Position numbers and translations under genes: made by a program. 32,000 nucleotides of DNA. It comes from Cereibacter sphaeroides 2.4.1. Lineage in GTDB: Bacteria > Pseudomonadota > Alphaproteobacteria > Rhodobacterales > Rhodobacteraceae. Below, piece after piece: positions 18,144 through 32,000 of this stretch. Position 1 is the stretch's first letter; the number at the start of each line of letters is the position of its first letter. The notes beneath the pieces are model-generated. The model worked only from the letters and a program-made list of their open reading frames with translations, did not search any database and was not told where the DNA came from. The stretch lies in NCBI RefSeq assembly GCF_000012905.2, contig NC_007493.2:1380001-1412000 (forward strand), written 5' to 3'.

Positions 18144-18458
18144 TTCAGACGTTTCCCCTCCTCTGGGGCGCGGGGGAGAGACTGGTCGAGACGCCTCGTC
18201 CCGCCGCCGGCCGCGGACGCACATGTGGCATCCTTCGGGATCAACCGGAAGGGGAGAGAGAGGTCCCGCCCCCCGTGTCGGCGCCTTCGCAGCGCTTCTC
18301 CGCTCAGGGCACCGGGGGGCAGGGGCGTTCCGCCCCGGGAGGCTTCCCGATGGGGTCAGCCTGCAGCGGCGCTCGGCCTGTCCCGCGCGTGGCGGGCAGC
18401 GCCATCCGCGGTCGCCGGCCGATCGGGCGAGCCCTCCCGGCCCGAACTGCCGGGGACT

Positions 18459-18854
18459 TCAGAAGCCTGCAATCTCGCGCCGGGCCACCATGGCGATGAA
18501 GGCCGACCGGGTCATCCCCCGCGCCGAGGCTGTGGCGTCGATGGCGCGCAAGAGGCCCCGGTCCATCGAGATGTTGACCCGTTCGAGCTTTCCGTCTGCA
18601 GGGACATAGGCGAAGGTCATCAGCGAAGCGCCCTCGGACAGCGCCTTCCGAACCTCCTCGCGAGACCGGATCGCGTCTATGGGGGAGGGCTCGACGGCCG
18701 GCCCGTCCTCGAACCAGAGGTCGAGCGCCTCCACCGCCTTCGCCGAGATGTCGGACCAGTCGTCGGCAGCGGCGAAACATCCCGGCATGTCCGGGAATGT
18801 GAGGCCATAGGACGAGTCCGGCTCTTTGTGAACGACGGCCGTGATCAGCTGCAT
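18459..18854 (-). CDS. hicB: HicB-family antitoxin (HicB fold + C-terminal RHH/CopG-like domain)
   Basis: 131 aa from the ATG at 18854; an alternative ATG lies at 18866. N-terminus MQLITAVVHKEPDSSYGLTFPDMPGCFAAADDWSDISAKAVEALDLW is typical HicB. C-terminus RVNISMDRGLLRAIDATASARGMTRSAFI is RHH-like. Confidence 0.75.
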   Translation of the reverse strand: MQLITAVVHKEPDSSYGLTFPDMPGCFAAADDWSDISAKAVEALDLWFEDGPAVEPSPIDAIRSREEVRKALSEGASLMTFAYVPADGKLERVNISMDRGLLRAIDATASARGMTRSAFIAMVARREIAGF

Positions 18855-19182
18855 GGGGCGCTCCATCGGAGGGACAGGCTAAGGATGGGATTCGGTCGGG
18901 CTCAGAAGAGGCCGGATCGTCGGTATATGCGTCGGGCGGTGCCCGGCGGAAGGTCCGTCTTCGGCTGCGTCAGGATCCTCGTCCTGTCTCCCTGCGGACG
19001 GGGCGGCCCATGGAGCGCGGGCGCGGATGGTTGCCGAAGCACTCGCGGCCGCGGTCCGGAGATTGCAGGGGGTCCGGCGCCCACGTCATGCCGAACGCGC
19101 CGATGAAACAAACCCGGCCCCGGCCTCATTCGCCGAGGGCGGCAAGCACCTGTAGCAAAAAGGAATTTCGGGGGGTAGGAGA

Positions 19183-19198
19183 TGGAGCGGGTGAAGGG
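19183..19198 (-). other. tRNA 3'-end fragment (tRNA-Gly-like CCCTTCACCCGCTCCA), probable att core at the island edge
   Basis: The minus strand reads CCCTT-CACCCGC-T-CCA. That is half a T stem, the 3' acceptor strand complementary to GCGGGTG, discriminator U and CCA. This matches my memory of alphaproteobacterial tRNA-Gly. The rest of a cloverleaf is absent, because TTGGC cannot pair with AAGGG. It lies 210 nt from the integrase start. Confidence 0.35.
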
Positions 19199-19409
19199 CG
19201 CCAAATTGGCGTGGCCGTCCGTATCAACCCGTAACAGCCGGCCTTGTTTTACTGGCAATTCATCGTCCGCGCAGTCTCATTCTGTTGCAATCTGCAGCAT
19301 CCAGTCGCATTCCTTTTGGTAAGTAGGCTGGTAAGTCCGCGGCGACCCACGGGCAGCGGCCGGCCGCCGGGAACGGCTCGGCCGGCCTCGGGATTAGGGA
19401 GGAGGGCGG

Positions 19410-20729
19410 ATGCCGAAGAAGGCGAGGGAATGGGGCGCGCTCGACGTCAAGCGGGCGGCGCATCCGGGCGACGGTGCAAACGTCTGGCATGCGGTCGGCG
19501 GCGTCGCCGGTCTTCTCCTGCAGATCACCCCGACCGGGGCGAAGAGCTGGCTTCTCCGCACGACTGTGGCAGGGACGCGGCGGGCCATGGGTCTCGGCTC
19601 CTATCCCGAGGTTGGGCTCGCCGAGGCGCGGGAGCGCGCCCGGGAGGCGAAGCGAAAGATCGCGGCGGGGGTCGATCCGATCGAGGAACGCAAGGCAACG
19701 CGCGCCGCCCTGGCGGCGGCGCAGCGGCGCTCCCTGACCTTCGCCGATGCCGCGGACAAGTGGATCAAGGCGAAACTGTCAGACCGGCCGGAGAAGTCTC
19801 AGAAGGCGGTGCGGGCCACCTTGACAGCCTATTCTTTTCCCGAGATCGGGGCGCTGACCGTGCAGGAGTTGACCCCGCAGGACGTGGTGCGCGCCTTGAA
19901 CACGATCTGGACGGCGAAGCCGGACACCGCCACGAAGATGAGGGGATATCTCGAGGCGATCCTCTCGTGGGCCACGGTCTCGGGCTATCGGACGGGCGAC
20001 AATCCAGCCCGATGGGCGGGCAACCTGAAGGAGTTGCTGCCGGCTCCGTCTGTCGTCGCCAAGGGCCGGGCAGGCAACTTCCCGGCCGTGCCGGTCGCGC
20101 GGCTGGCGGACTGGTGGGAGGAGCTGGGGCAGCGCGAGGGCATGGGCGCCACGGCCCTGCGCTTCGCCGCCCTGACGGCCGCCCGCTCGGGCGAGGTGCG
20201 CGGGGCTCTCTGGTCCGAGGTGGATCTCGATGCCGCCCTGTGGGTCGTGCCGGGCGCGCGCATGAAGATGGGGCGCGAGCATCGCGTCCCGCTCTCGGGC
20301 CCGGCCGTGGCACTCCTCCGGGGCCTGCCCCGCCTTGCCGGGACCGGCGACCTGATCTTCCCCGGGCCCCGCGGCGGGATTCTGTCCGACATGAGCGTGA
20401 GCGCCGTCATGCGCCGGATGCAGGAGGACGCCGAGACCGAGGCCAAGATGGCCGGTCGGCCGGTCAGCGCCGCGGGTTGGCGGGACACGCGGACCGGCCG
20501 CCCAGCCGTGCCCCATGGCCTGCGCAGTTCATTCCGCGATTGGGCTGCCGAGGTCGGCTATGACCGGGACATGGCAGAGATAGCCCTCGCGCACCTGGTC
20601 GGGTCCGAGGTCGAGCGTGCCTATCGGCGCTCCGACATGCTCGAGCGCCGGCGGGCCATGATGGAGCGGTGGGCCGACGTCCTCGCAGGCCGGTCTGGCG
20701 CGTCCGTGGTGGAGTTCCGGCGGGCTTGA
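19410..20729 (+). CDS. int: tyrosine-type site-specific integrase, P4/DUF4102-type
   Basis: 439 aa. GGGAGGAGGG upstream. The N-terminal arm-binding domain pattern (GLLLQITPTGAKSWLLRTTVAGTRRAMGLGSYPEVGLAEARERA) is present. Catalytic region has R (LTAARSGEV), HGLRSSFRDW and LAHLVGSEVERAYRRSD. Confidence 0.9.
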   Translation: MPKKAREWGALDVKRAAHPGDGANVWHAVGGVAGLLLQITPTGAKSWLLRTTVAGTRRAMGLGSYPEVGLAEARERAREAKRKIAAGVDPIEERKATRAALAAAQRRSLTFADAADKWIKAKLSDRPEKSQKAVRATLTAYSFPEIGALTVQELTPQDVVRALNTIWTAKPDTATKMRGYLEAILSWATVSGYRTGDNPARWAGNLKELLPAPSVVAKGRAGNFPAVPVARLADWWEELGQREGMGATALRFAALTAARSGEVRGALWSEVDLDAALWVVPGARMKMGREHRVPLSGPAVALLRGLPRLAGTGDLIFPGPRGGILSDMSVSAVMRRMQEDAETEAKMAGRPVSAAGWRDTRTGRPAVPHGLRSSFRDWAAEVGYDRDMAEIALAHLVGSEVERAYRRSDMLERRRAMMERWADVLAGRSGASVVEFRRA

Positions 20730-20930
20730 TCGACGCACCTGAGGGGCCGCGCCCATAGGCGTGCCCCCGGCCCTCGGTGGAACAGGAGGGCGCCGGTCCG
20801 CATGGCACGATAGGGGCGCGGCATACGAGAGGCCGCGGTGAACCGGTGGGCGGCTTATTGCGGGGGAGGCGTCACAGGGCGACGATTGTAGCAACGCGTA
20901 TCAATTAGTTGCGCGCGTGTTTCGCGGCTG

Positions 20931-20966
20931 GTTTCTGCTTGTTTAAGCAGAAACGCTCCCTACAAA
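20931..20966 (+). promoter_or_regulatory. 24-bp palindrome overlapping a candidate promoter for the island operon
   Basis: GTTTCTGCTT-gttt-AAGCAGAAAC (20931-20954) has perfect 10-bp arms. TTGTTT (20939-20944), 16-nt spacer, TACAAA (20961-20966). This is the locally AT-richest stretch of the island. A second small inverted repeat, CTCCCT-N9-AGGGAG (20956-20976), follows. Confidence 0.4.
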
Positions 20967-20995
20967 ATGCAGGGAGTTGCATGAAAGGACACGGC

Positions 20996-21454
20996 ATGTC
21001 TCTCGCGAAAGCAATTCCCGGCGTGCTGGCGGGCGCAACCGGGAAAAACAGCGGCTCGGAAAAACCACAAGTTCAGAATGCCACCGCTGGAGAAAATCCG
21101 CAACCCATTTCCTTCCCCGATGGGGACCGTTTCCGGTGGATCCTTAGCGTTCGCGATGCGCTCTGCGCGATGCCGGACGGGACGGCCTCCGATCTGACGA
21201 TCGCGGTGAAGATGGCGGAGTGGGCGGATGGTGACGGAATTCTCGTCGTGAAGCTGGACGATTTGGGCGCCGCGGTGGGGATGCGATCCGATTACTCGAG
21301 ACACGGGGTGTGGCGTATCGGCCGCGCCGGCTTTGTCCGGTCGTGGGCCCGGGGACAAGGGCGCGCGGCGGGGCGGATCCTCACCTTCCCGAACGATCCG
21401 CGCGACGTTGAGAAGTTGATTGCTCGGCACCAGATCGGCGGGGGTGCGGCATGA
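20996..21454 (+). CDS. hypothetical winged-HTH-like protein (first gene of the island operon)
   Basis: 152 aa from the ATG at 20996; an alternative ATG lies at 20981. The track start at 20909 is a TTG inside the regulatory region. The segment TASDLTIAVKMAEW...VKLDDLGAAVGMRSDYSRHGVWRIGRAGFV is laid out like the N-terminal domain of the next gene. Confidence 0.5.
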   Translation: MSLAKAIPGVLAGATGKNSGSEKPQVQNATAGENPQPISFPDGDRFRWILSVRDALCAMPDGTASDLTIAVKMAEWADGDGILVVKLDDLGAAVGMRSDYSRHGVWRIGRAGFVRSWARGQGRAAGRILTFPNDPRDVEKLIARHQIGGGAA

Positions 21455-22626
21455 GTGTCGATCGCAAGCCGGAGCGTTCCCCGTTCGACAAAGAGCGCGA
21501 CGCCTTCCTTCTGGAAGTTTCAGCGAACCGGAAGCTCAGCGCTGCCGCCAAGTCGATCGCCATCCAGATCGCGGTCAAACACGCAAACCGGATGCAGTTC
21601 AACAATGGCGCGTGGGACCTCGCTTGGCCGTCGTTCGAGACGCTGGCCGAGGCGACAGGATACCAGCGAAACGCCGTGATCGTGGGCGTCAACCAGTTGG
21701 CGACTGAAGGACACCTCGATGTGCGGCGACAAAAGGGCGGGTCTGGCAGGTCGAACCGCTATCGGTGGATCATCAAGGGGACCGTCACCATCGACGCGCA
21801 GGACGCAGTTGATGACGGGGAAAACAGTATCGTGGACGATACCGTTTCTGACGAAAACAGTATCGTGGAGGATACTCGAACAGTATCGTCCACGATACCA
21901 GAACCGCTAGAGGAACCGCTGGGCGGCGCGGGCGCTCACGCGCCTGCGCCTGAACCGCCGAAGACGGCACCTAGCCCGGATACCGTAGAGTCCTTGAATA
22001 ATGTTCAAGACGCGAGCGCGGGCGCGCGTGACCGCGCCCGCTCGGACGACGTTCAAGGTCGAGATCATCCCGCGTCGGATCCAGATATGGATGGACGCGT
22101 GTTCGACCTCGTGCCTGAGTACGCGCCGGCCGACGGCATCGCGCAGCTGCCAGTCCTTCGGCGGGGACAGCACATCTCGCTCGCCGAACGCGACGCGCTG
22201 TCGGCGGGATGGCACGGCCTCGGTCCCTCGGTCTCTCCGCCGGATGCGGTCGAAGAGGACGGGCCCCTCCCTACGGCGGTAGCCGCGGCAGCGTTCGCCC
22301 GTTTGCACCGGGACCTTGGCGACGCAGAAGCATTCGCGGCCGACGTCCTGGACGGCTTTGCGGGAGGCGATGGCGACGCCGCAGCCCGTGCCGCCCGCAT
22401 CGCCGCGAAGGTCCTCCGTCAAGCCGTGTCTCAAGGCACTGGGCCGGAGGTGCTCGAGGCGCACCTTGAAATTGCCCAAGCCCTCCTGCGCGACGGCAGC
22501 GGCAGCGACCGCCTAGCACGGTCGGCCGTCCGGGCATTCGATCGAGCCGCGCGGGCAGCCTCGGCGGCCATCCGGGCAGCACATAAGCTGAGACCGCAGC
22601 CCGATGAGGAGGAAGTAACATGCTGA
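21451..22626 (+). CDS. replication-initiator-like protein (N-terminal wHTH, Ala/Asp-rich C-terminal half)
   Basis: 391 aa. ATGA overlap with the upstream gene. N-terminal LSAAAKSIAIQIAVKHAN...WPSFETLAEATGYQRNAVIVGVNQLATEGHLDVRRQKGGSGRSNRYRW is typical of phage/plasmid wHTH initiator domains. An iteron cluster is embedded in the linker. Confidence 0.5.
   Translation: MSVDRKPERSPFDKERDAFLLEVSANRKLSAAAKSIAIQIAVKHANRMQFNNGAWDLAWPSFETLAEATGYQRNAVIVGVNQLATEGHLDVRRQKGGSGRSNRYRWIIKGTVTIDAQDAVDDGENSIVDDTVSDENSIVEDTRTVSSTIPEPLEEPLGGAGAHAPAPEPPKTAPSPDTVESLNNVQDASAGARDRARSDDVQGRDHPASDPDMDGRVFDLVPEYAPADGIAQLPVLRRGQHISLAERDALSAGWHGLGPSVSPPDAVEEDGPLPTAVAAAAFARLHRDLGDAEAFAADVLDGFAGGDGDAAARAARIAAKVLRQAVSQGTGPEVLEAHLEIAQALLRDGSGSDRLARSAVRAFDRAARAASAAIRAAHKLRPQPDEEEVTC
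21821..21898. repeat. iteron-like repeat cluster (3 copies of ~21 nt) inside the Rep-like gene, candidate origin
   Basis: AAAACAGTATCGTGGACGATAC (21821-21842), AAAACAGTATCGTGGAGGATAC (21854-21875), GAACAGTATCGTCCACGATAC (21878-21898). The 16-nt core of copy 3 is the exact reverse complement of the core of copy 1. Confidence 0.6.
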
Positions 22627-23117
22627 TCGATCTCGAGGCGGCGCGGGCCGCGCGTGCAGCAGACCACAAGCCTGTCGAGCCGCGCCAACCGGAGGAACCT
22701 CGCGGCCCGTCCAAGCGAGGGACGGTTACACCGCAACTGGCTACCTCTTTCGACGCCTTCATTCGTTGGCATCCGCATCTCGATCCGCGCCTCATCGCGG
22801 CCGAGCTCCGGGCGGCCATGAAGGTTGACGCAACCACAGCAGGGGCTATGGCCCGGGATCGGCGGGCAGCGGTGCGAGCGGCCCTAGCCGCCCTCGGCCT
22901 TGCTGAGCGGCGCGTCGAAGCTCTGAGCTCTGAGCACTGGCTCTGCACGCGGCTCCATGCTCGGGCCATGCGCGAGCTTGAGCGCCAGGAGGCGGAGGTG
23001 CGCGAGACCGCCTATCGCCGCGCCCTTCAGCAAGCACGGTATCAGTTTGAGCGGGAGCTGGATGCACGGCTCGCCGCGATCTTCGCGGCAACTGAGATCG
23101 GCGGGGGTGAGCGATGA
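22620..23117 (+). CDS. hypothetical protein
   Basis: 165 aa. The ATG overlaps the upstream stop (ATGCTGA). Helical, Arg/Glu/Ala-rich C-terminus. No family recognised. Confidence 0.5.
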   Translation: MLIDLEAARAARAADHKPVEPRQPEEPRGPSKRGTVTPQLATSFDAFIRWHPHLDPRLIAAELRAAMKVDATTAGAMARDRRAAVRAALAALGLAERRVEALSSEHWLCTRLHARAMRELERQEAEVRETAYRRALQQARYQFERELDARLAAIFAATEIGGGER

Positions 23118-23467
23118 ACGCGGAAGTCGAGCTCATGTGGGGGGTGGCAGAACGGCTTCTCCCCGCGTTCGATCCCGAGGCGTTCGCAGAGATGTTGACC
23201 CCGATCCTTGATCGCAGCGATTTCGATACGGGGGTGGCTGTCTGGCGCGCTTGGCGGGCGCGGGCGGACCGGCAACTCATCCGGCAGAACGTGCCGGAGG
23301 CAACCCGGCGCATGATCCTGGGCTATCTCCGTGCGGGTGTGCATCTCCACCTCTACGCGATCCGCGGGAGCGTAACGTGCGGACCTCGTCCGGAGCAGGT
23401 CGCCACATCGGCCGAGGTGCTTTCCTTCCGCCCGCGTGCGGCCGTGGCAGGGGATGACCGTGGCTGA
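23114..23467 (+). CDS. hypothetical protein
   Basis: 117 aa. ATGA overlap with the upstream gene. Balanced composition including W/F/Y. No family recognised. Confidence 0.5.
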   Translation: MNAEVELMWGVAERLLPAFDPEAFAEMLTPILDRSDFDTGVAVWRAWRARADRQLIRQNVPEATRRMILGYLRAGVHLHLYAIRGSVTCGPRPEQVATSAEVLSFRPRAAVAGDDRG

Positions 23468-24047
23468 CCTCCCCGCCCCCGCCCTCGACCCCGAAGGCCT
23501 CTGGCGCGGGCCGTGGCCGGATGCCAGCGACCCGGCGCCCGACCTGCGCCGCTTGGGCGCCCGCGAACGGGCGCACCTGCTCGCCTGCGTCGCGGAGTGG
23601 ACCGGCGCCTGCCCGGTGCCTGCGATCCAGATGGGCGGAGAGCTCCTGCTTCGGGCGCTGGCCGAGGCCCTCGCGGGCGAGCCGATCGGGCGCGCCCTCG
23701 GGATCGAGCCACCGGCCGGTTTGACCCTTCGCCGAGCGGCGCTTCTGCGCGAGCGGGACGAGCTGCTCCATCGCGCCCGCGCCGCCCGGCCGGAGTGGCG
23801 CACCGCCTCGGCGCGGCGGGCGGCAACGCTGATCCATGCGGCCCTCGATCGCTACCGCGCGAACGTCTGGCCGCGCGAGCGGGGCCGGGAGGCAGCGCCG
23901 GCCGCAGAACCGGCCGCGAGTTTCTGGCGGATCTGTCGTCTCGAGGCCGGGGGCGGGCCCAAGGCGGTGGGCAGCGAGCGGATCGCGCAGATCTTCGAGC
24001 TGGCGGACGGTCCAGCGGAGCGACCGGAACAGCTCGATCTCCTCTGA
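23454..24047 (+). CDS. hypothetical protein
   Basis: 197 aa from the ATG at 23454, which overlaps the upstream gene end. An alternative GTG lies at 23436. No family recognised. Confidence 0.45.
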   Translation: MTVADLPAPALDPEGLWRGPWPDASDPAPDLRRLGARERAHLLACVAEWTGACPVPAIQMGGELLLRALAEALAGEPIGRALGIEPPAGLTLRRAALLRERDELLHRARAARPEWRTASARRAATLIHAALDRYRANVWPRERGREAAPAAEPAASFWRICRLEAGGGPKAVGSERIAQIFELADGPAERPEQLDLL

Positions 24048-24159
24048 CGAGGCACCGGGGCGGCCACCCGCCCAGGTGCCGTTCCGGCAAATCTGCCGCC
24101 GCTTCGGAGTTGGGATCACCCGCGCGAAATATGGCTCAGGAACAGAACCCGGAGCCGTC

Positions 24160-24627
24160 ATGCCCCCGAAGTCCCCGCCCCTGATCTTCGACCCCGCGCG
24201 CTTGGACGCGCTGGCGCGGATCGCCGATCAGAAGACCGCCGCCGTCCGTTCGCAGACCGACCGCCGGCACGATCTGCGCGAGAAGCTCAGCGACGTCGAT
24301 CTGCGCCGCCGCCTCCATGCCGACAAGATGACCGAGGCCCAACCTGCGCGCGACGCCCGCGCCTCCTATGCCGGCTTCGACGGCGAGGGCGCACGGCTCG
24401 ACCGCGAGGCCGCCGACCTTCGCCGGCAGATGGACGATCTCGACGCCGAGATCAGCGCCACCAGCCGCGAGGCTGGCGACGCGCGCGCCACCTACCGGCG
24501 TGCCCTCGAACTCGCCTGCGCCGAGGGCTTGCCGCTCTCACTCGCGCACATCGAGGCGGCGCGGGTCGCGAAATTCGATACCATGGCGAGCGAGCTCGCC
24601 GCCTTCTCGGCGGAGGTGGGCCAATGA
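24160..24627 (+). CDS. hypothetical coiled-coil protein
   Basis: 155 aa from the only ATG in the frame, with GGAG 5 nt upstream. Heptad-like charged helices (DLRRQMDDLDAEISATSREAGDARATYRRALE). Confidence 0.45.
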   Translation: MPPKSPPLIFDPARLDALARIADQKTAAVRSQTDRRHDLREKLSDVDLRRRLHADKMTEAQPARDARASYAGFDGEGARLDREAADLRRQMDDLDAEISATSREAGDARATYRRALELACAEGLPLSLAHIEAARVAKFDTMASELAAFSAEVGQ

Positions 24628-25208
24628 TCGGGAACCTCCTCAGCGCCCTGCGCGGGCAGCGTGAGGCCGCCGTGGGCGCCCTCGATGCCCTGGAAAGCGT
24701 GCGTGCCCAGATCGATGATGCGAGGACCGAGATCCGGCGCATCGCGTCCGCCCCGCAACCGCTCGAAGACGCGATGGCCGCGTTCGACCGGTGGGCGGAT
24801 CAGCAGGTCGTGGATGCCATCGACGGGCTGCCGACCGGCCGGCTCCTCGATCCGATCGAAGCCCGCCGTGGGCTCACGCGTGAGGCCGTGCGGGTGGATG
24901 GGATGACCCTCCTCGCGCCCGAGATCGACGCCGTGCGCGGCGTATTGCTCGCTTCCCCGACCGTCCGCGCGGAGATCCGCGCCGTGGTCGAAGGCCAACT
25001 TCGCGACCGCCTACAGGGCAAGGAAGCGATGAACCCGGACACCCGTGCGAAGAAGCTGACCCGCGCCCAAGCCGATCTGCTCGCGCTCGAGCTGGCCGAG
25101 GAAGCCGCCATTCGCGCGCTGGAAGCCGCCGGGCTGCCCGTGATGCGTCGGCCCGATGCTGACCCGCGGGTGCTGCTCGCGAGCGACACCAGCCTGCCCG
25201 AGGCCTGA
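24624..25208 (+). CDS. hypothetical protein
   Basis: 194 aa. ATGA overlap with the upstream gene. Helical N-terminus. No family recognised. Confidence 0.5.
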   Translation: MIGNLLSALRGQREAAVGALDALESVRAQIDDARTEIRRIASAPQPLEDAMAAFDRWADQQVVDAIDGLPTGRLLDPIEARRGLTREAVRVDGMTLLAPEIDAVRGVLLASPTVRAEIRAVVEGQLRDRLQGKEAMNPDTRAKKLTRAQADLLALELAEEAAIRALEAAGLPVMRRPDADPRVLLASDTSLPEA

Positions 25209-25559
25209 CGATGAACACCTGCTCGGTCCTCCTTGGTGTTCTCGGGCCGGGCATGGGCGACGGGGCAGGGCTCCCTCCTTCGTCCGCAATCCGGCGCGTT
25301 CGCCGCGATGCCCCGTCGTCCCGTCGCCCGTCCCCGGGTGCCCCTGCACGCGGGGCGGGCGGCAAACCTTCCCACGCCGGCCCGCCAGCAATCCCGCAGA
25401 CCAGCGGCCTGCCGGGAGCGCTCAGGACAGCCGCCCCCACCCCCCCGGATAGGGACCGTGTTTTTGCCCGCCGGGAGCGGCGGTTCGACGGCCCGGCTTC
25501 CGCCCGATTTTCGGAAGCGCAAATCGCAATTTTTCTTTGAAAGGTGGAACGTGGTTCCG

Positions 25560-25751
25560 ATGAATGACCGCATGGAAGAACAAGATCGCGGCCCGAGGTC
25601 GATCCGCGCTGCGCTACAGGATCGCCAAGCGGCGGCCCAGCCGGATCTTGCCGCAGTTTTTGCCGCGCGACCGGCCGTTGCCGCGCTCTGCGCCCGCGCT
25701 GCCGCGGGGCTGATGGCTGGCACCCGCACTCCCAGCCCGAACGAGGAATGA
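25560..25751 (+). CDS. small hypothetical protein preceding the scaffold-like gene
   Basis: 63 aa (MNDRMEEQDRGPRSIRAALQDRQ...). AAAGGTGG upstream. Its stop overlaps the next ATG (ATGA at 25748-25751). Only the 3' part of the 25233..25751 track ORF looks coding. Confidence 0.35.
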   Translation: MNDRMEEQDRGPRSIRAALQDRQAAAQPDLAAVFAARPAVAALCARAAAGLMAGTRTPSPNEE

Positions 25752-26536
25752 CCATGACCAACAACGCCACCCACGAGCGCCGCCGTCTCGCCGCCATCAC
25801 GCGTGTTGACGCGAAAGGCATCACTGGACAGGCGCGGTATGCGGCCATCCGGCAGGCCGAGGAGGAGATCGAGCGCGAGGAGCTGACTGCAGCCGCGGCC
25901 CGCCAGAAAGAACAGTCGGCCGCAGAACAGGCCAAGGCTGAGCGCCAGCGCGTCGCATCGTGCATTGAGGCGGGCCGGGCTACCGGCCGCGCCCGCCAGC
26001 TCGCCCGCATCGCCCTCAGCAGCCCTCTTGACGCCGCAGGAGCCAAGGCCTTGGTGGCGTCCCTCCCACCGGACGCCGCGGCTCAGGCAGAGGCGCTGCG
26101 GATCCCGACCGCCGCCGCCACCTTCGGCACTGCGGAGGCTCAGGCCGAGCGCACGCGCATGGCTCAGATCCTCGGGGCCGAGGTGGCGGCGGATCGTTTC
26201 GCCGCCGCAGCGGCCTTCGCTCTCGAGACGCCTCTTGGGGTGGCGGATGCGCTGGCGGCGCTTGCGCTGGTTCCTGCCGCCGCAGCCGCGTCGCGCATCC
26301 CGACCATCGCCGAGCGTGCCGCCGAAATGGCCGAGTTTGGCGGGTCGGATGCGGCGTTCACGAGCCGGATCGACGGCAAGCCGGACGTCGATGCCATGTG
26401 GAAGAAAGCCGTCCACGAGGCAAACATTTCCATCGGCGCGGTCGACCCGACGCCGAGGCCCGCGGCCGGGCCGGGCGCACCGTCGCCGACGGGTGCCGAG
26501 CATCTGGCGCGGCAGCACTCGCGCCACAACTTCTGA
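25748..26536 (+). CDS. scaffolding-like protein (Nu3 / protease C-terminal-repeat type) without a protease domain
   Basis: 262 aa. Two ~44-aa internal repeats: AERQRVASCIEAGRATGRARQLARIALSSPLDAAGAKALVASLP (res 64-107) and AERTRMAQILGAEVAADRFAAAAAFALETPLGVADALAALALVP (res 133-176). This is the ER.RI..IL...EA.GRE.LA..LA pattern I recall from the C-terminal scaffold regions of lambda-like head proteases. It lies directly upstream of a decoration-protein gene. Confidence 0.45.
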   Translation: MTMTNNATHERRRLAAITRVDAKGITGQARYAAIRQAEEEIEREELTAAAARQKEQSAAEQAKAERQRVASCIEAGRATGRARQLARIALSSPLDAAGAKALVASLPPDAAAQAEALRIPTAAATFGTAEAQAERTRMAQILGAEVAADRFAAAAAFALETPLGVADALAALALVPAAAAASRIPTIAERAAEMAEFGGSDAAFTSRIDGKPDVDAMWKKAVHEANISIGAVDPTPRPAAGPGAPSPTGAEHLARQHSRHNF

Positions 26537-26550
26537 AGGAGAAGGGACAC

Positions 26551-27204
26551 ATGACCGTTTTCACCCAAGGCAAGCGCGCCTGCGAAGGCCTGATGAGCGA
26601 GGCGCCCGGGCAGCGCAGCCGTGAGGGCATCGTGATCTCCGCAGGCGCCGGGATTATTGCGCCCATGACCGTGCTCGGGAAGAAACTCCACAGCTCGCTC
26701 GCGGCGACCGCCAGCGCATCGCCCGCTGGCAAAGGGACCCTCACGCTGGCTGCACCCCCTGTCGGCCCTGGCGCCAAGGCGGGCGTCTACAAGGTCGTGA
26801 TCGTGGAGCCCGCGACGAACGCCGGGGCCTTCGTGGTCGAGGATCCGAGCGGCGTGATCGTCGGGAACGGCACGGTGGGCGTCGCATTCACCGGAGAGAT
26901 CAAGTTCACCCTGGCTGACGGCGCGACGGATTGGGCCGCTGGCGATTTCGTGACTGTCACCGTGCCCGCCGGGTCCGGCGAATACATCCCGTCGGACGTC
27001 ACCGCGACCGACGGCAGCCAGATCGCCGCGGCCGTGAACCTTTACGGCTGCGACGCCACCAGCGCGGCGCAGGCGGTCTCGGCCATCGTCCGGGATGCGG
27101 AGGTCAACGGCAACTTCCTCACCTACCACGCGAGCCGTGACCAGGCATCCGAGAAGGCTGCGGCCGTCGCTGATCTGGCCGCGGCCGGCATCATCGTTCG
27201 GTGA
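26551..27204 (+). CDS. head decoration protein, lambda gpD-like, long form
   Basis: 217 aa. AAGGAGAAGGG upstream. N-terminus MTVFTQGKRACEGLMSEAPGQRSREGIVISAG and C-terminus TDGSQIAAAVNLYGCDATS...AIVRDAEVNGNFLTY...ADLAAAGIIVR match the alphaproteobacterial gpD-like pattern. About 100 extra residues sit in the middle. Confidence 0.55.
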   Translation: MTVFTQGKRACEGLMSEAPGQRSREGIVISAGAGIIAPMTVLGKKLHSSLAATASASPAGKGTLTLAAPPVGPGAKAGVYKVVIVEPATNAGAFVVEDPSGVIVGNGTVGVAFTGEIKFTLADGATDWAAGDFVTVTVPAGSGEYIPSDVTATDGSQIAAAVNLYGCDATSAAQAVSAIVRDAEVNGNFLTYHASRDQASEKAAAVADLAAAGIIVR

Positions 27205-27722
27205 CGGCGATGCCCCGCGTCCGAAAGACGCGCGCAGATGCGCCCGCATTGCCGGCGGATGCGGTGCGGTTGGCCGAGGCGGCCGAGGTTGTTGGCCTGA
27301 GCGCGGAACGGCTTCGCCAACTGTCCCGCGAGGGTCGCTTCGAGATCGAGCGCGGTCATGCCTCGTTAACCGCCGTGATCGGGGGCGTGATCGCGGCGCT
27401 TCGGGAGCGAGCGCAGAAGGACACGAAAACGGCGAGCCTGAGCCGGGCGCAGGACGCGCGGGCGGCGCTTCTGGCCGCCCGCACCCAACGACGGCGCGAG
27501 CAACTGGTGGCCCGTGCGGATGCCAATCAGGCCCTCGATGAGCTTGGCCGTCGGGCTATCGCCGCGCTGCACCGTGCGCCGGTTCAGGCGGTGGCGGAGC
27601 CGCTGCGCGCCGCCGTGCGCGCGGAGGCGGCGGACGCGGAGCGCAAGATCGGTAAGGCCGTCCGCGAGGCGAAGGCCGCATTGGCGAGCGGCGACTTCTC
27701 GAGGATTGCGCCCGATGAATAA
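27201..27722 (+). CDS. Nu1-like small terminase / DNA-packaging HTH protein, paralogue 1
   Basis: 173 aa. GTG at 27201 overlaps the upstream stop; an alternative ATG lies at 27210. N-terminal HTH (VRLAEAAEVVGLSAERLRQLSREGRFEIERG) is followed by a long helical Arg/Ala region (ARAALLAARTQRRREQLVARADANQALDELG), as in Nu1-type TerS. Confidence 0.45.
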   Translation: MTAMPRVRKTRADAPALPADAVRLAEAAEVVGLSAERLRQLSREGRFEIERGHASLTAVIGGVIAALRERAQKDTKTASLSRAQDARAALLAARTQRRREQLVARADANQALDELGRRAIAALHRAPVQAVAEPLRAAVRAEAADAERKIGKAVREAKAALASGDFSRIAPDE

Positions 27723-28116
27723 CCTTGCCGCAGCATTGCTCGAGCGCCGCTTCCCTCTCGCCGATGCAGCGGCGGCGCTCTCCGTCCCGGCCGCTGTGCT
27801 GCAGCTTGGGGCTGGTGACGACGGGGCCATTCCCTTCCGGCGCGCCGTGCGCCTCGCGCTGGCGCACCATCGGACACTGGCCTATGCCGTGCGCGGTCCG
27901 GCGCCTGCGCCTAGCGATCAGCGGGCCTACCAGCGTCACCTCCCGGCGGCCAGGCAGGCCGTGGGCACGGCGATCTCGGGTGCCTTGGCCACCGCGGCCG
28001 AGCGCGTGGCGGGTCTGCCGGCCGCCCATCCGTGGGATAAGCAGGCGCGAGACCGCGTCGCCACCGCGCTCCGCACCGCGTCGATGCGTCGTTACGGGAG
28101 GCGCGCCAATGGCTGA
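27715..28116 (+). CDS. hypothetical protein between the two TerS-like genes
   Basis: 133 aa. Its ATG overlaps the upstream stop (ATGAATAA). Its stop overlaps the next ATG. Possible HTH (LADAAAALSVPAAVLQL). Confidence 0.4.
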   Translation: MNNLAAALLERRFPLADAAAALSVPAAVLQLGAGDDGAIPFRRAVRLALAHHRTLAYAVRGPAPAPSDQRAYQRHLPAARQAVGTAISGALATAAERVAGLPAAHPWDKQARDRVATALRTASMRRYGRRANG

Positions 28117-28561
28117 CGCTCAGATCACCGTCGCCGCCTTCGGCCGCCTCGTGGGCGCCACGCGGGCAGAGTTGGAAGCGCTGATCTCGGCCGGCGCCTT
28201 GCCAAAGCCCACGGGCCGGGATCGGCGCCTCCCGCTGCGAGAGGCCGCCGCGCGCTACCTCGCGCACCTCCGCGCGGAACTTGCGACGGCCCGGGCCGGC
28301 GCCGCTGCCAGCCGGGCGCAGGAAGCGCGGGCCGGTGCTGCCACTCTCGCGCTCGCGGTGGAGAGGCGAGAGCTCTTGGACGCCCACGAGGTCGAGGTCG
28401 CGTTAGCTTCCGCCTGCGGTGCGATCAACACAGCGCTATTGGTCATTCCGGCCCGCGTCACCCGCGACAGTCGCCAGCTCCGCCTTCTGGAAGATGCTAT
28501 CTACCAGCTCCGGGCTGAGCTTGCCGCCGATCTCCAATCCGAGGACGAAAAGCAGGCATGA
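28109..28561 (+). CDS. Nu1-like small terminase / DNA-packaging HTH protein, paralogue 2
   Basis: 150 aa. N-terminal HTH (ITVAAFGRLVGATRAELEALISAGALPKP) followed by a helical region (SRAQEARAGAATLALAVERRELLDAHEVEVAL). Same layout as 27201-27722. Confidence 0.45.
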   Translation: MADAQITVAAFGRLVGATRAELEALISAGALPKPTGRDRRLPLREAAARYLAHLRAELATARAGAAASRAQEARAGAATLALAVERRELLDAHEVEVALASACGAINTALLVIPARVTRDSRQLRLLEDAIYQLRAELAADLQSEDEKQA

Positions 28562-28791
28562 CCATGACGATTTACGAAACCGTAACCGTGGCGGGCGATC
28601 GGATCACCCTGCCGCTGCTCATCTGGCGCCGGTTCAAGCGCCCGGTTCCCGGCGTGCTCGAGGCGACCCTCGAGGCGAACCCTGGCCTTGCGGACCTCGG
28701 GCCGGTGCTTCCGGTGGGAACGAAGATCCGCATCCCGATCCCGGCCCCGGAGGCCGAGAAGCGGCCGACGGAACGCATTTCGCTCTGGTGA
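28558..28791 (+). CDS. P2 gpX-like tail protein X (LysM-like)
   Basis: 77 aa. ATGA overlap with the upstream gene. Pattern YETVTVAGDRITLPLLIWRRF......LEATLEANPGLADLGPVLPVGTKIRIP fits the Phage_tail_X family. Confidence 0.55.
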   Translation: MTMTIYETVTVAGDRITLPLLIWRRFKRPVPGVLEATLEANPGLADLGPVLPVGTKIRIPIPAPEAEKRPTERISLW

Positions 28792-28842
28792 TGATGAGAC
28801 CGGGCAGGGGCGGTCCTATGCCGTTCCTGCCCGCATCGGAAA

Positions 28843-28865
28843 AGGCGGAGGCGAGCTGTCCGCCT
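28843..28865. terminator. hairpin between the convergent gpX-like and Cys-rich genes
   Basis: AGGCGGA-N9-TCCGCCT (7-bp stem), preceded by GGGCAGG-N17-CCTGCCC. There is no T tract. Confidence 0.3.
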
Positions 28866-28873
28866 CTGAACGA

Positions 28874-29134
28874 TCAGCAGGCGCAGCCCGGACCTTTCCG
28901 ACAGGACTTCGAGACCGCGATGCAGCTGTCGCCGCATGGTTTCCCCTTCCGGCACGTCTTGCAACAGGCGGCGAGAAGGACCCGCGGGCCCGATCGCATC
29001 CTCTGCACATGCTGCAGAAGGCTCTCCGAAACGGTGCCGTCCGCACGGCTCATTCCCAAGGTCCGCACAGGATCTGCCGCCGCAACGGATGAGATCATGA
29101 TCGCAAGGCAGGCGAGACGAAGGATAGATCCCAT
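28874..29134 (-). CDS. small secreted Cys-rich protein
   Basis: 86 aa from the ATG at 29134, with AGGAG 6 nt upstream. The track ORF extends to 29299. Signal peptide MGSILRLACLAIMISSVAAA. The C-terminus CCKTCRKGKPCGDSCIAVSKSCRKGPGCAC has 9 Cys in 30 residues. Confidence 0.5.
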   Translation of the reverse strand: MGSILRLACLAIMISSVAAADPVRTLGMSRADGTVSESLLQHVQRMRSGPRVLLAACCKTCRKGKPCGDSCIAVSKSCRKGPGCAC

Positions 29135-30006
29135 TGGAGCTCCTATGGTGGCGCGCGCCAATTGCGCGTGAACACCGTGGAGGAGCCTGCGCGCTGATCC
29201 GATGTGGCGCCACGCCTCCCGTTCGGAATAGCCGAGCCATGTCCGTAGGTATGCGATCAGAATTCGAAAGGTCGGCGCCGGTCGTGCTGCCGGCGGCACT
29301 CATGCGCTCTCACAGCGGCTCAAGGGAGGGGCGGCCGCAGACCTTCGGAGGAGCCTGCGGCCTATCCGTCGCAAGATTATGAGGCCGCTTCGGATGGCGG
29401 CCTGCTACTGCGCCGGCGCATGATCCGCACTGCGGCACAATGAGGCGCAGCCGACCGGGCGAGGCACCGGACGTCGCTGCTCCGGCCATCATTCCCGCCA
29501 GCCCGGAGCGTGGTGCGGTCGAGCTTTGTCAGCGTTGGTGTGACAGGTCGATCGAAGGCTGTCGCAGGCGCGGCGGAAAGGGGTGATTTGCCCGTCGGCC
29601 GTTTCCGATCTTCGACCTCCGAGGAGATGGGAAATCGGAAGTTGCCGGGCGGGCGGATCATGCCGGGGTCGCGGTGCGCGCTCACGTTTCGCTCCCGCGC
29701 CTCGTGGATCTCGTCGCGGCGGATCCCGAGGTCGGCGGCAGTGGCGGGTTTCGTGGTGGGGGCGGGCGCAACGCCCGGCTTGGAAGAGACTTCGTGATCT
29801 GCAACGTCTTTTTTCCGGGCCTCGCTGCCTGTGCGCCGCCACCTCGCCCCACTCCCGCGCAGCGTCCCCAACTGCCGGCCGCATCCTCAATCGGGCCTCC
29901 ATCCTCACGAAGGCGGCTTGCGCCCTGTAGACCACACCAGGCGCATCACGGGCCGCAGGTTTCCCGGCTGGCACGCAACGGCTCATTGGCGGCTCTGGCC
30001 GCCATC

Positions 30007-30036
30007 TTGAAATTCAGCGCAGTTTCCGCATATACA
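30007..30036 (+). promoter_or_regulatory. candidate promoter giving a near-leaderless brnT mRNA
   Basis: TTGAAA (30007-30012), 18-nt spacer, TATACA (30031-30036). The brnT ATG lies at 30044 and no Shine-Dalgarno is present in the 7 intervening nt. Confidence 0.4.
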
Positions 30037-30043
30037 AAAACTC

Positions 30044-30292
30044 ATGTTGGTGATTGTATGGGATGAGCCAAAGCGGCGCAGCAACCTGGCGAAGCATGGG
30101 CTGGACTTCGCGGACCTAGACGAGGAGTTCTTCCTGTCGTCGGTTGTCGTGCCAGCAAGCGCAGGCCGTCACATGGCGATCGGGCGCCTTGAGGATGGAA
30201 CCATTGCCGTGGTCTTCGCGGTTCTGGGGGCCGAGGGCGTTTCGATCATCTCTATGCGCCCTGCGAGCCGAAAGGAGAGGAGCCTTCTATGA
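30044..30292 (+). CDS. brnT: BrnT (DUF497) type II ribonuclease toxin
   Basis: 82 aa. WDEPKRRSNLAKHGLDFADL ... GVSIISMRPASRKERSLL matches the BrnT pattern (WD..K...N..KHG..F ... IRIISAR.A...E). Confidence 0.8.
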   Translation: MLVIVWDEPKRRSNLAKHGLDFADLDEEFFLSSVVVPASAGRHMAIGRLEDGTIAVVFAVLGAEGVSIISMRPASRKERSLL

Positions 30293-30594
30293 CGAAGAAG
30301 CGTCAACTCGACACGGAAGAGACCCGCATCCAGCGGATGATCGCGAGCGACCCGGATGCTCCCGAAGCGACCGACGCGCAGCTTGCGCAGGCCCGACCCT
30401 TCACTGAGGCGTTTCCTGTGCTGGCCGAGGCCATGCGGCGCAGCGCAGGCGGTCGCCCGAAGCTGGACGCGCCGAAAATGTCGGTTTCACTTCGCCTCGA
30501 TCAGGACGTGGTGGCGCACTTCAAGGCAGGCGGCCCCGGTTGGCAATCTCGGATGAACCGCGCCCTGCGGGAGGCGGTCGGCCTCTCCGGCTAG
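30289..30594 (+). CDS. brnA: BrnA antitoxin
   Basis: 101 aa. ATGA overlap with brnT. GGRPKLDAPKMSVSLRLDQDVVAHFKAGGPGWQSRMNRALREAV is the BrnA family signature. Confidence 0.8.
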   Translation: MTKKRQLDTEETRIQRMIASDPDAPEATDAQLAQARPFTEAFPVLAEAMRRSAGGRPKLDAPKMSVSLRLDQDVVAHFKAGGPGWQSRMNRALREAVGLSG

Positions 30595-30811
30595 CGGCGC
30601 GGCGAGGAAAAGGGGGGGGGGCGCGCGGCCAGAGAACCCCATTTCCGGGCCACCTGCGGGCGGTGACGTCTATGGCTGCCGGACACAGTGCTGCCGCGCG
30701 CTTGTGCCCGTCCAGCGCCCGCTACTTGGCTCCTGCGGCATTAAGAGGTTTTCTTGCGGTCGGGCCGGCGTCATGGCATGTCGGAAACATTCCCGCACAT
30801 AGGAGCCCCGC

Positions 30812-31395
30812 ATGAATGCCCGGACGCCCCTCGCCGCCCTTCTCGGTGCCGTCGCTGCAGACCTTGCAATTGATCGCAGCGCATGGGGCAGGGCCGCGCC
30901 AGCCGCGGCCCCGGCTCCGACCGAGCCGCGGGAGACATGGACGCCCGGGTTGGTCATGCAGACGATGATCGACGCCCAGCTGTGGGCACGGCGGACAGGT
31001 CGCCCGGTGGGGCCGGCGGGCTACACGCGGTCTCGCTCGGATTACCAAGCAAGCGATCTGGACTTCGAGCGCGAGGGCTGGGGCCTGCCCGAGGTGGCCG
31101 ATCCTGAGACGACATTCCCCCGATGCGCGTCCAGGCCACGGCCGCCCTGGTCAGCCTCTATGAGGCCGCGCTCGAATGGCCTGCGGACTATCTTTGCCCG
31201 GAGCACATCGGCTCCGCCCGGATGCTCGGCCTGTTCACCGTGTGCAAGGCCATAGGCCTGCCCGTTGCGCGCGAGCTGAAGGCGCGTGGCGTAGCGCGTC
31301 ACCACGCCTACCGGCTCCGGGATCGCGGCCTCTCCCTCACCGCCCAGGGCCTCGAGCGGGACGGGGTGCCGGTGCCCCAGCCCGAGCGGCTGTAG
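30812..31395 (+). pseudogene. island HTH-type protein split by a frameshift at a C5 run
   Basis: ORF 30812..31255 has plausible sequence to ~31120, then R/S/P-rich nonsense. ORF 31123..31395 is in the -1 frame, which is open from 31108. The junction is at CCCCC 31117-31121. The joined product is ~194 aa with a C-terminal HTH-like region (VARHHAYRLRDRGLSLTAQGL). AGGAG lies 7 nt upstream of the ATG at 30812. Confidence 0.5.
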
Positions 31396-31490
31396 AACCG
31401 CCTACGGGGCATCGCGCCGCGCAGTCTTCACCATTGAACGCCTCGCCACGATCGCGACCCACATAGCCAGCAGTTCGGCTTAACCGGGCG

Positions 31491-32000
31491 CTAAATGTGA
31501 GGGTTCTTCGGAACCCGAGGTTGCTGCAAGATATTCTCGACCACGCTCCAAGGCCAAACGATGCCAAGCTGAAGATCTTCCTTCACGTTAATCCTCCCAG
31601 AGTAAACGCCAACGATCTGTGCTGCACCGCGCTCAGCCACCACCGTATCGCCATCGCTGTTGATGTAAATTCCGCTATTAGCGACTTGGATAACCAAAGA
31701 ACCGGACATTCCTGGTCGCGAGGCGGTGTCTACATAGAAACACGGAGGACGGTGCACTTCTGCCAAAAGCGGCTCACTTGCAACGCTTGCGCGCTTCCAT
31801 ATGGGAAGTGGCTGAAACTTCAGCTTGAAGGGGAAGCCAATTATAAAAACTTCCGATCCCGTCCCGATATAGAAGCCTCGCATGACAGTGCCGTCACCAA
31901 GATCGTCATTAAGGCATGTGATCTGCAACCCATCCGGCAGCTGGCATGGAATTGCCACCACATCCACTTTCGCGTCCTCGTCTTTGTGCTCCAACCATTG
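31491..32000 (-). CDS. trypsin-like (S1/chymotrypsin-fold) serine protease, C-terminal part; N-terminus beyond the window
   Basis: The frame is open to the window edge (QWLEHKDED...). An Asp-type motif (VDVVAI) and the Ser motif SRPGMSGSLV are present; the catalytic His is expected upstream. GC content is markedly lower than the rest of the window. Confidence 0.55.
   Translation of the reverse strand, partial: QWLEHKDEDAKVDVVAIPCQLPDGLQITCLNDDLGDGTVMRGFYIGTGSEVFIIGFPFKLKFQPLPIWKRASVASEPLLAEVHRPPCFYVDTASRPGMSGSLVIQVANSGIYINSDGDTVVAERGAAQIVGVYSGRINVKEDLQLGIVWPWSVVENILQQPRVPKNPHI

Follow-up and report, generated by a model that had tools for sequence, protein, structure and literature searches.

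Scaffold-like and head decoration genes

The window analysed here is a 32,000-nucleotide stretch of Cereibacter sphaeroides 2.4.1 DNA (contig NC_007493.2, positions 1,380,001 to 1,412,000, forward strand), and all coordinates without a further label are positions in it. Towards its right end lies an integrated element of about 14.1 kb. Two adjacent genes of this element are the subject of this work, a gene for a stand-alone homologue of Nu3-like scaffold proteins (25748-26536) and a gene for a long-form head decoration protein of the gpD family (26551-27204). Both are on the plus strand, as are all genes of the island from 19410 to about 31400. We conclude that the two genes probably belong to the late or 'morphogenesis' operon of an integrative phage satellite of ~14.1 kb, whose head genes would act on the assembly and packaging of a helper phage.

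Because long spurious open reading frames (ORFs) are common at ~70% G+C, coding was checked for the ORFs of the window. The 262 codons of 25748-26536 show a coding-type pattern (GC1/2/3 of 0.74/0.59/0.81) that is even over the whole length, and the start of the gene overlaps the stop codon of a conserved 63-codon gene upstream (ATGA). The product has no match in Pfam or NCBIfam and contains neither an S49 nor a ClpP domain, which agrees with its initial description as a protease-less scaffold-like protein. Residues 129-200 match phrog_17040 'head maturation protease' (E 9e-7), and residues 121-231 align with the last ~110 residues of S49 prohead proteases from the related phage contigs L003 and L006 (~105 residues at 35-38% identity, pairwise E 2e-5 to 5e-5). 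The scaffold-like protein and the C-terminus of S49 prohead proteases have the segment ERA..EFG...W.KAV..AN..IGA in common. The C-terminal half therefore corresponds to the Nu3-like tail of these proteases, and the link that the initial annotation had drawn between its helical repeat and C-terminal scaffold regions is supported.

The repeat, an AER.RI module, is real. Residues ~60-112 and 129-181 align with a local score of 81, compared to 34.7 +/- 6.4 for shuffled sequences, of which 0 of 500 reach 81. The protein had been said to keep only two copies of the module, and in this sense of a remnant the statement does not hold. In the same scan, the module was detected once in the protease of L003 and once in that of L005, and no copy was detected in the proteases of L006 and of the related island L015. 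As the proteases carry one copy at most, the two copies in the scaffold-like protein represent a duplication and not the remainder of a larger number. Alignment of the family profile with lambda Nu3 by hhalign shows a weak similarity to Nu3 residues 104-166 (63 columns, 32% identity, probability 58%, E 1e-4), and judging by this profile alignment the module may be the same one as in the classical lambda scaffold. AlphaFold predicts the protein confidently as all-helical, with a predicted local distance difference test score (pLDDT) of 87, and the best matches of the model among the viral models of BFVD are prohead or S49 proteases.

An exhaustive HMMER search defines the scaffold-like family as 53 clusters at 50% identity, nearly all of them with proteins of 190-270 residues that align over their full length; a word-indexed protein search had found few relatives (6 and 9 matches). 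Stand-alone proteins of 121-275 residues make up 49 of the 53 clusters, including four short ones of 121-150 residues. Two clusters (P0163 and P0174) are S49 proteases with the scaffold-like region at their C-terminus. A Nu3-type scaffold is encoded in frame within the protease gene or fused to it; 25748-26536 is a separate gene.

The product of 26551-27204 (217 residues) belongs to the gpD family of head decoration proteins. It matches Pfam HDPD (PF02924) with E 1.1e-30 and 106.5 bits (cut-off 29.1), where residues 3-214 cover the complete profile (1-116 of 116) split by an insert, and phrog_49 'head decoration' with 7e-17. Alignment with short gpD forms, which are 68-84% identical over the aligned columns, delimits a clean insert of 94 residues (residues ~48-141, nucleotides 26692-26973) and so confirms the ~100 extra residues noticed initially. 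A BLASTP comparison of the window gpD with lambda gpD gives no significant match, and the two are connected by profiles alone. In the AlphaFold model (pLDDT 89) the insert is confidently predicted to be beta-rich. Foldseek aligns the model to lambda pD (5mfd) with a template modelling (TM) score, normalised to the target, of 0.49-0.53 and a root mean square deviation of 3.1 A over 76 columns, and to the decoration proteins of YSD1 and Bas63 with TM-scores up to 0.58. The probabilities of the decoration-protein matches range from 0.66 to 0.99 and their E-values are just 0.05-0.6; these weak whole-model E-values arise because the insert dominates the search.

The long form had been regarded as special, with a norm of long forms beside a capsid gene in complete phages named as the finding that would speak against this. 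Such a norm is what we observe. The search for gpD relatives yields 509 proteins, and the best ones are mostly 205-225 residues long. The cultured Pseudomonas phages vB_Pae_U5 and Haddon carry a gpD of 210-211 residues between a Clp/S49-type protease and the major capsid protein, with a complete set of terS, terL, adaptor and portal genes upstream of this block. The closest metagenomic relatives (81%, 61% and 55% identity) stand in the order portal, S49 protease, gpD, Phage_cap_E, with a P2-type baseplate downstream. A scan of IMG/VR found gpD at 33 loci, 32 of which are phage head modules. Wherever the downstream DNA of a long form is readable, it lies between the protease and an E-type capsid gene (10/10), and all 32 phage relatives with readable downstream sequence have a capsid gene; the window gpD has none next to it. 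Scanning genome contigs with this single protein gave no match. Short forms occur in complete phages as well (L046), and both lengths are found in phages and in satellites. Adaptation of the long gpD to a satellite was therefore rejected as an explanation of its length. Since long forms sit in ordinary head modules and short ones also in complete phages, the insert is a common, swappable accessory domain.

Packaging genes and operon neighbours

The gene following gpD encodes TerS-like protein 1 (27201-27722, 173 residues), with 32% identity to the phage TerS of L003. Its match to phrog_57 is weak, and the orthologue in the related island L009 reaches 9e-8. This gene is kept in all family members with the scaffold core. 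Further downstream, TerS-like protein 2 (28109-28561, 150 residues) matches phrog_57 with E 3.3e-11 and is 65-73% identical to its counterparts in L009 and L015 and 28-30% identical to the TerS of phages L003 and L005. Taken together, the two TerS-like genes of the window are 28-32% identical to the TerS of these phages. A TerS-like gene in the place where a capsid gene would be expected had been an early observation on this locus, and it is borne out, as no capsid gene was detected after gpD. Between the two TerS-like genes lies orf133 (27715-28116), which has no assigned function, is 43-58% identical to L009 and L015 and is restricted to Cereibacter-type elements.

Upstream of the scaffold-like gene lies the small conserved gene of 63 residues (25560-25751), whose stop overlaps the scaffold-like start and which is 71-78% identical to L009, L015 and the short contig L011, with a weaker match to L010. 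The operon also holds a gene for a tail protein X resembling P2 gpX (28558-28791, 77 residues; Pfam Phage_tail_X 2.6e-12). We regard it as an accessory gene derived from a helper-type phage. It is 58-60% identical to gpX genes directly 3' of the head module in phages L063 and L075. With the scaffold-like gene set aside, gpD and gpX are the only virion genes of the island besides the TerS-like pair. No Phage_cap_E, portal, TerL or protease gene was detected among the island reading frames, and tail-tube and lysis genes are absent too.

Purifying selection is seen in the head and packaging genes, with ratios of nonsynonymous to synonymous substitution rates (dN/dS) of 0.16-0.29 in gpD, 0.29-0.60 in the scaffold-like gene and 0.18-0.43 in the TerS-like genes.

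Boundaries, replication module and remaining genes of the island

The left end of the island is marked by a 16-nucleotide direct repeat, TGGAGCGGGTGAAGGG, at 19183-19198 (attL, plus strand), which has one exact match in the window with 0 expected by chance. Neither attR nor a tRNA gene is found within the window, and the right end was located in a near-identical locus, L008 (public chromosome CP047037.1), which is 99.9% identical to window positions 18001-32000 with 10 small indels over 14 kb. There, TGGAGCGGGTGAAGGG occurs again 14,079 nucleotides downstream, exactly at the 3' end of a tRNA-Gly(CCC) gene; this is attR, and it lies beyond the window. The recurrence of the repeat at this distance gives an island of ~14.1 kb with its right end just past the end of the window. 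The indels break several island ORFs in L008, where the scaffold-like gene is not called, and one of the two records probably contains assembly errors at these places.

A tyrosine integrase of 439 residues (19410-20729; Pfam Arm-DNA-bind_3, Phage_int_M and Phage_integrase) adjoins attL. The next ORF (20996-21454, 152 residues) has no assigned function, no family match and no homologue in related islands, and it occupies the position of HTH_17/AlpA-type genes in relatives. It is followed by a replication initiator-like protein of 391 residues (21451-22626), which matches Pfam HTH_36 (E 1.8e-6) and several PHROG 'replication initiation / O-like' families. A repeat search found three 23-nucleotide iterons, GAAAACAGTATCGTGGACGATAC, inside this gene at 21820-21898, a putative origin of replication. 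The rep gene of L009 contains an array with a period of 36 nucleotides at the corresponding place (L009:4141-4440), and both arrays are probably origins. No primase domain was detected in the replication module of the island.

Downstream of the rep gene, the conserved family ORFs orf165 (22620-23117), orf117 (23114-23467) and orf203 (23436-24047) have no assigned function. They are 70-94% identical to L009 or L015 and 38-47% identical to L010, and homologues of orf203 occur across the wider island family. The family core genes orf155 (24160-24627) and orf194 (24624-25208) are 87-90% identical to L009 and 30-46% identical to other islands. Upstream of the small 63-residue gene, the island has six ORFs without a known family.

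On the other side of the operon, the 1.25 kb between gpX and the next cargo gene (28791-30044) show no convincing coding signal and contain a minus-strand ORF with a Cys-rich C-terminus (28874-29299). The cargo is a BrnT/BrnA toxin-antitoxin pair (30044-30292 and 30289-30594), with Pfam BrnT_toxin and BrnA_antitoxin assigned in the annotation of L008. The terminal conserved family gene (30812-31395; phrog_6836, 180-193 residues in relatives) matches L009, L015, L010, L012 and L014 in two frames. Near the end of the window and still inside the island, a 167-residue ORF without assigned function lies on the minus strand (31491-31994) in DNA of lower G+C (0.61). Just outside attL, on the chromosomal side, there is a gene for a HicB-like antitoxin on the minus strand (18459-18866).

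A conserved motif upstream of the operon

A conserved non-coding motif is located at 25431-25540 on the plus strand, with its core at 25451-25481. It consists of a C-run, AGGGACCGT, a spacing of ~20 nucleotides, GG.GCGGCG, GGCCCG and a T-run. The motif lies ~100 nucleotides upstream of the 63-residue gene and is present once per element at the same position in every close relative. In more distant family members, it stands before other gene blocks. Three of these (L022, L026 and L045) have two copies of AGGGACCGT each, before different gene blocks, and a TTGAC-like box is often found ~95 nucleotides downstream.

An nhmmer model built from 21 satellite copies alone matches the helper-type phage contig L003 at 1974-2076 (E 1.2e-7 in 89 kb searched), which is the start of the phage late region. 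A partial copy is found just 5' of terS at the very start of contig L004. An RNA element was considered and rejected, as the fold z-score is 0.45, compensatory pairs are zero and nothing matches in Rfam. Going by these matches, the motif is probably a helper-responsive site for late-gene control that the island has in common with its helper, with a packaging site as the alternative. The paired copies before different gene blocks, together with the TTGAC-like box, favour a promoter-associated role over a packaging site.

The match in L003 also bears on whether the element has to do with phages at all. It could be imagined as a phage-independent island, integrative and mobilisable or plasmid-like, that carries phage genes by chance. 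Its own rep gene with iterons would fit this, and some relatives encode ParB plus an AAA_25 helicase. Conjugation or mobilisation genes are seen in no member of the family, however, and a core of two TerS homologues and a scaffold homologue would be useless without a phage capsid and large terminase. With the regulatory motif common to the island and phage L003 in addition, we regard phage independence as very improbable.

A family of related islands

The island belongs to a family with a conserved gene order. L009, found in a different C. sphaeroides strain, measures 15.05 kb and is bounded by repeats of a tRNA-Ser 3' end; L015, from C. azotoformans, is ~14.0 kb long and lies at a tRNA-Ala gene. 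Relatives of the proteins encoded by the window island carry annotations as C. sphaeroides or C. azotoformans. L010, L012, L013 and L014 have the same gene order with differing integrases, replication genes and cargo. In L010 and L012-L014, the order begins with the integrase, an optional protein of 238-251 residues, HTH_17/AlpA, a variable replication module, orf165, orf203, orf155 and orf194, and continues with the small gene, the scaffold-like gene, TerS-like 1, an optional orf133, TerS-like 2, cargo and the terminal gene of 180-193 residues. The cargo varies between ParE, HigBA, VWA/PP2C/kinase and AAA plus S8 protease, with TAC plus a tape measure in L009; at the position of BrnT/BrnA, other members carry ParE, HigBA or defence-like cargo.

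The conserved unit of the family is the scaffold-like gene with the two TerS-like genes. The initial annotation had proposed the scaffold and decoration genes as a fixed functional pair, and this is not borne out, as gpD is present in some members only. The scaffold-like gene alone is the commonest arrangement of the head-gene position. It is accompanied by a long or a short gpD in others, such as the short contig L011 with scaffold-like gene, short gpD and TerS-like 1, and in a third variant the position holds a full protease with capsid protein and gpD. The latter is seen in L015, where a full S49 protease of 461 residues replaces the scaffold-like gene, followed by an E-type capsid protein of 339 residues and a short gpD, while the backbone is otherwise the same; a portal and TerL are still missing. 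An own capsid protein, with or without protease and gpD, is encoded by L015, L016, L017, L019 and L028. Contigs of 14.0 kb of the L015 type were recovered from at least 20 sequencing samples. L016 (14,014 bp) and L017 (14,012 bp), which equal the whole element, start and end in the att repeat and are therefore not by themselves evidence of a circular excised form. In the IMG/VR phages L060-L063, two gpD genes surround the capsid gene (order S49 protease, gpD, capsid, gpD, gpX; for example L063:1754-3576), which may explain the odd order of protease, capsid and gpD in L015.

L009 has no gpD. It encodes a tail-fibre protein of 568 residues (phrog_2712) in a separate slot upstream (L009:7416-9122) and a Phage_TAC_7 chaperone with a tape measure of 870 residues (L009:11994-15120), so that this satellite appears to bring its own tail parts. 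Tape-measure homologues are also present in several distant family members.

As family marker for scans of sequence collections we used orf194, searched with a hand-made degenerate DNA pattern; since the pattern requires exact matches, the resulting counts are lower bounds. It is found on nine IMG/VR contigs, seven of them 11.8-14.7 kb long, and in species-representative genomes it gives 17 true matches, all 17 in Alphaproteobacteria. Carriers include Rhodobacter, Roseovarius, Loktanella, Celeribacter, Tateyamaria and Pseudorhodobacter, as well as Agrobacterium, Rhizobium, Pararhizobium, Rhodoplanes, Aurantimonadaceae and Sphingomonas. The structural genes downstream of orf194 vary in these genomes and may be the scaffold-like gene, an S49 protease, gpD plus a capsid protein, or a tape measure.

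Probable helper dependence and proposed mechanism

The discrete island of ~14.1 kb with a 16-nucleotide tRNA-Gly repeat, an integrase, a Rep protein with iterons and TerS-like genes, together with the family of similar islands, supports the idea of a satellite that had been raised at the outset, and we consider it highly likely that the element is a satellite-type island. It has an integrase, its own replication initiator and a putative origin, but no capsid, portal, large terminase or lysis genes, and would therefore have to borrow these from a helper. The identities of the genes, the ends of the island, its conservation in the family, the purifying selection and the homology to genes of helper-type phages are shown here; the need for a helper, a change of capsid size and the role of the motif are inferred. 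The predicted helper has a lambda-type head (GpA-type terminase, portal_2, S49 protease with a Nu3-like tail, gpD and E-type capsid) and a P2-type baseplate. Homology to phages of this type is found for several head genes of the family. The window gpD shows 81% identity to its counterpart in phage contig L006, whose protease and capsid protein are in turn 67% identical to the ones encoded by satellite L015.

The operon can be understood as a set of diverged copies of helper genes, with a duplicated stand-alone Nu3-like scaffold domain, gpD in this copy, two TerS paralogues and gpX. We propose that it would be turned on along with the helper late genes through the shared upstream motif. The scaffold mimic would enter helper procapsids via the shared C-terminal segment and compete there with the helper protease-scaffold, as SaPI1 CpmB does. 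This competition could bias assembly towards a smaller shell that fits ~14 kb, about one third of a helper genome of 40-49 kb. The TerS-like proteins would steer the helper large terminase onto satellite DNA, and gpD would supply or supplement the cement that stabilises the filled shell. Given the retained C-terminal segment of the protease and the doubled helical module, competition with the internal scaffold is the most economical mechanism.

A redirection of capsid size by the island is a tentative proposal, somewhat less likely than not. The three att-bounded elements measure 14.0, 14.1 and 15.05 kb despite very different gene content, which points to a limit on packaged length of about one third of a 40-49-kb helper genome. 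In P4 with P2 and in SaPI1 with 80alpha, the satellite genome is likewise about one third the size of the helper genome. These sizes agree as well with small capsids as with trimers in full-size heads. The scaffold mimic, and perhaps gpD, might instead poison the assembly of helper capsids or exclude the protease; small capsids would then not form, and full-size heads would receive the island as multimers. Three copies of 14.1 kb amount to ~42 kb, enough to fill a head of helper size. Packaging as concatemers, with the capsid left unchanged, is common among marine satellites. EcCICFT073, which also has homologues of head genes, enters particles as DNA of phage size, and its interference with lambda works by other means (PMC6092414). 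Toxin-antitoxin and defence-like genes at the cargo positions of the family would suit such an interference. The sizes of ~14-15 kb in three att-bounded copies fit a size limit, yet a third of a full head and a small head would look alike in this respect; the kept C-terminal segment of the protease and the duplicated module rather suggest a built-in structural role. We therefore consider poisoning with multimer packaging a serious but unlikely alternative to the redirection of capsid size by a scaffold mimic.

Several observations weigh against reading the two genes as part of the late operon of a working satellite. The helper and the behaviour as a satellite are predictions from the genes. 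The likeness of the scaffold-like protein to lambda Nu3 is weak, and its model has no match in the PDB by fold or by sequence. The decoration gene is absent in most family members and is therefore an accessory gene that is not essential to the family life cycle. The shared AGGGACCGT motif may serve in packaging or as a promoter. The terminal conserved gene is frameshifted near 31105-31115 by an apparent insertion of 2 nucleotides relative to L009, with the same break in L008, and no homologue of the HTH_17/AlpA regulators of L009 and L013 is found in the window, while L009, L010 and L013 have them. The copy in the window may thus be partly decayed.

Taken further, these last points would make the island a decaying prophage or satellite remnant, in which the scaffold-like and gpD genes are functionless leftovers. 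Besides the frameshift and the missing AlpA-like regulator, the stretch 28791-30044 and the 10 indels that separate the sister assembly L008 from the window would agree with decay. The gene order is unlike that of a phage deletion derivative, however, with TerS after gpD and integrase and Rep upstream, and this architecture is found again in many genera, combined with other integrases and attachment sites. In addition, dN/dS is well below 1, the ORFs of the operon are all intact and translationally coupled, and the stand-alone scaffold-like protein forms a family of its own with 53 clusters. A mere remnant is therefore improbable, and we keep to the late operon of a satellite as the preferred interpretation.

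Significance

Phage satellites are well studied in Firmicutes and Gammaproteobacteria, while alphaproteobacterial ones are known from broad metagenomic surveys only. The island in the window may be, in a judgement that falls a little short of even, the first recognised member of a widespread satellite lineage of Alphaproteobacteria (Rhodobacterales, Rhizobiales, Sphingomonadales) with a duplicated Nu3-type factor for size determination or assembly hijacking, two TerS paralogues, a swappable head-gene position and a late-operon motif shared with the helper. No description of this island family was found in the searchable literature on satellites of Rhodobacterales or Rhizobiales, which is absence of evidence only.

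Organisms amenable to experiments carry the family, such as Cereibacter sphaeroides, Agrobacterium and Rhizobium leguminosarum. In the family, one backbone is combined with a natural series of head genes (mimic only; mimic and gpD; protease and capsid), by which it becomes testable how much of the head toolkit a satellite needs, and a test of whether a duplicated helper scaffold domain resets capsid size is possible as well. The upstream motif shared with a phage is an entry point to the question of how satellite gene expression is timed to the late phase of the helper. For annotation, a lone 'head decoration protein' gene in Alphaproteobacteria can be the sign of a satellite and not of a prophage.

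Comparison with known systems

PICI-like phage satellites (PICI, phage-inducible chromosomal island) are known as a kind of element, and a satellite with a decoration gene has precedent. In E. coli, the PICI EcCICFT073 possesses genes for a capsid homologue and for head decoration (PMC6092414, Fillol-Salom et al. 2018). Similar to EcCICFT073 and other Gram-negative PICIs, the element is an island of ~10-15 kb at a specific attachment site, with the integrase at one end, what look like regulation and replication genes with a putative origin, then a packaging module, and cargo. It has TerS-type packaging genes while most virion and lysis genes are absent. A further likeness to EcCICFT073 is a helper with a lambda-type head, which is predicted here, and the head genes parallel those of L015 (capsid plus gpD) and of the window (gpD). 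In contrast to EcCICFT073 and the PICIs in general, orf165, orf203, orf155 and orf194 of the core belong to no known family and show no detectable sequence kinship. The window lacks a primase domain and an AlpA gene, so that the AlpA regulator beside the integrase that characterises PICIs is missing. The hosts are Alphaproteobacteria, the element is described from its genes only, and the conserved core is a stand-alone Nu3-like scaffold homologue with two TerS paralogues.

Some family members (L015, L016, L017, L019 and L028) encode their own capsid protein, as capsid-forming PICIs (cfPICIs) do. A cfPICI carries capsid, protease, portal, connectors and both terminase subunits. In contrast, portal, head-tail connector and large terminase genes were seen in no member; a capsid gene is missing from the window altogether, and of the cfPICI set L015 has protease and capsid only, next to gpD.

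The initial annotation had pointed to P4 Sid and Psu. P4 has a size determinant and a stabilising decoration protein, a size ratio of about one third and a helper tail of the P2 type (PMC7552001, Kizziah et al. 2020), and the parallel would be a scaffold and a decoration protein encoded by a satellite. The analogy is loose. Sid builds its cage on the outside of the shell, Psu is a helical dimer, and no homology connects either of them to Nu3 or gpD. The decoration gene is optional in the window island family. No matches to Sid, Psu, Delta or the alpha primase-helicase were found among the island proteins in Pfam or PHROG, and homology to Psu, Sid or CpmA/B was rejected since no family matches exist.

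The nearer analogue is SaPI1 CpmB, which binds where the helper scaffold would bind on the capsid protein, competes with it there and so alters the size of the shell (PMC5644958, Dearborn et al. 2017). CpmB is a small, helical internal scaffold encoded by a satellite, as the window protein would be, and competition is the mechanism that we propose for the latter. Unlike CpmB and CpmA, to which it has no match in sequence or fold, the window protein is visibly homologous to the scaffold domain of the helper itself, in duplicated form.

With the lambda head genes C/Nu3, D and E, the locus has in common a gpD of the HDPD family, and related phages show the order portal, protease/scaffold, D, E. 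The AE.xRI...LA module is weakly similar to Nu3 residues 104-166 and may be shared as well. In contrast to lambda, the scaffold homologue is a separate gene with a doubled module and is not nested in the protease gene, gpD has an insert of 94 residues, and an E gene is missing. The backbone, the duplicated Nu3-type homologue, the paired TerS genes, the variable head-gene position and the shared motif fall outside the definitions of P4-like satellites, PICIs, cfPICIs and PLEs (PMC10085698).

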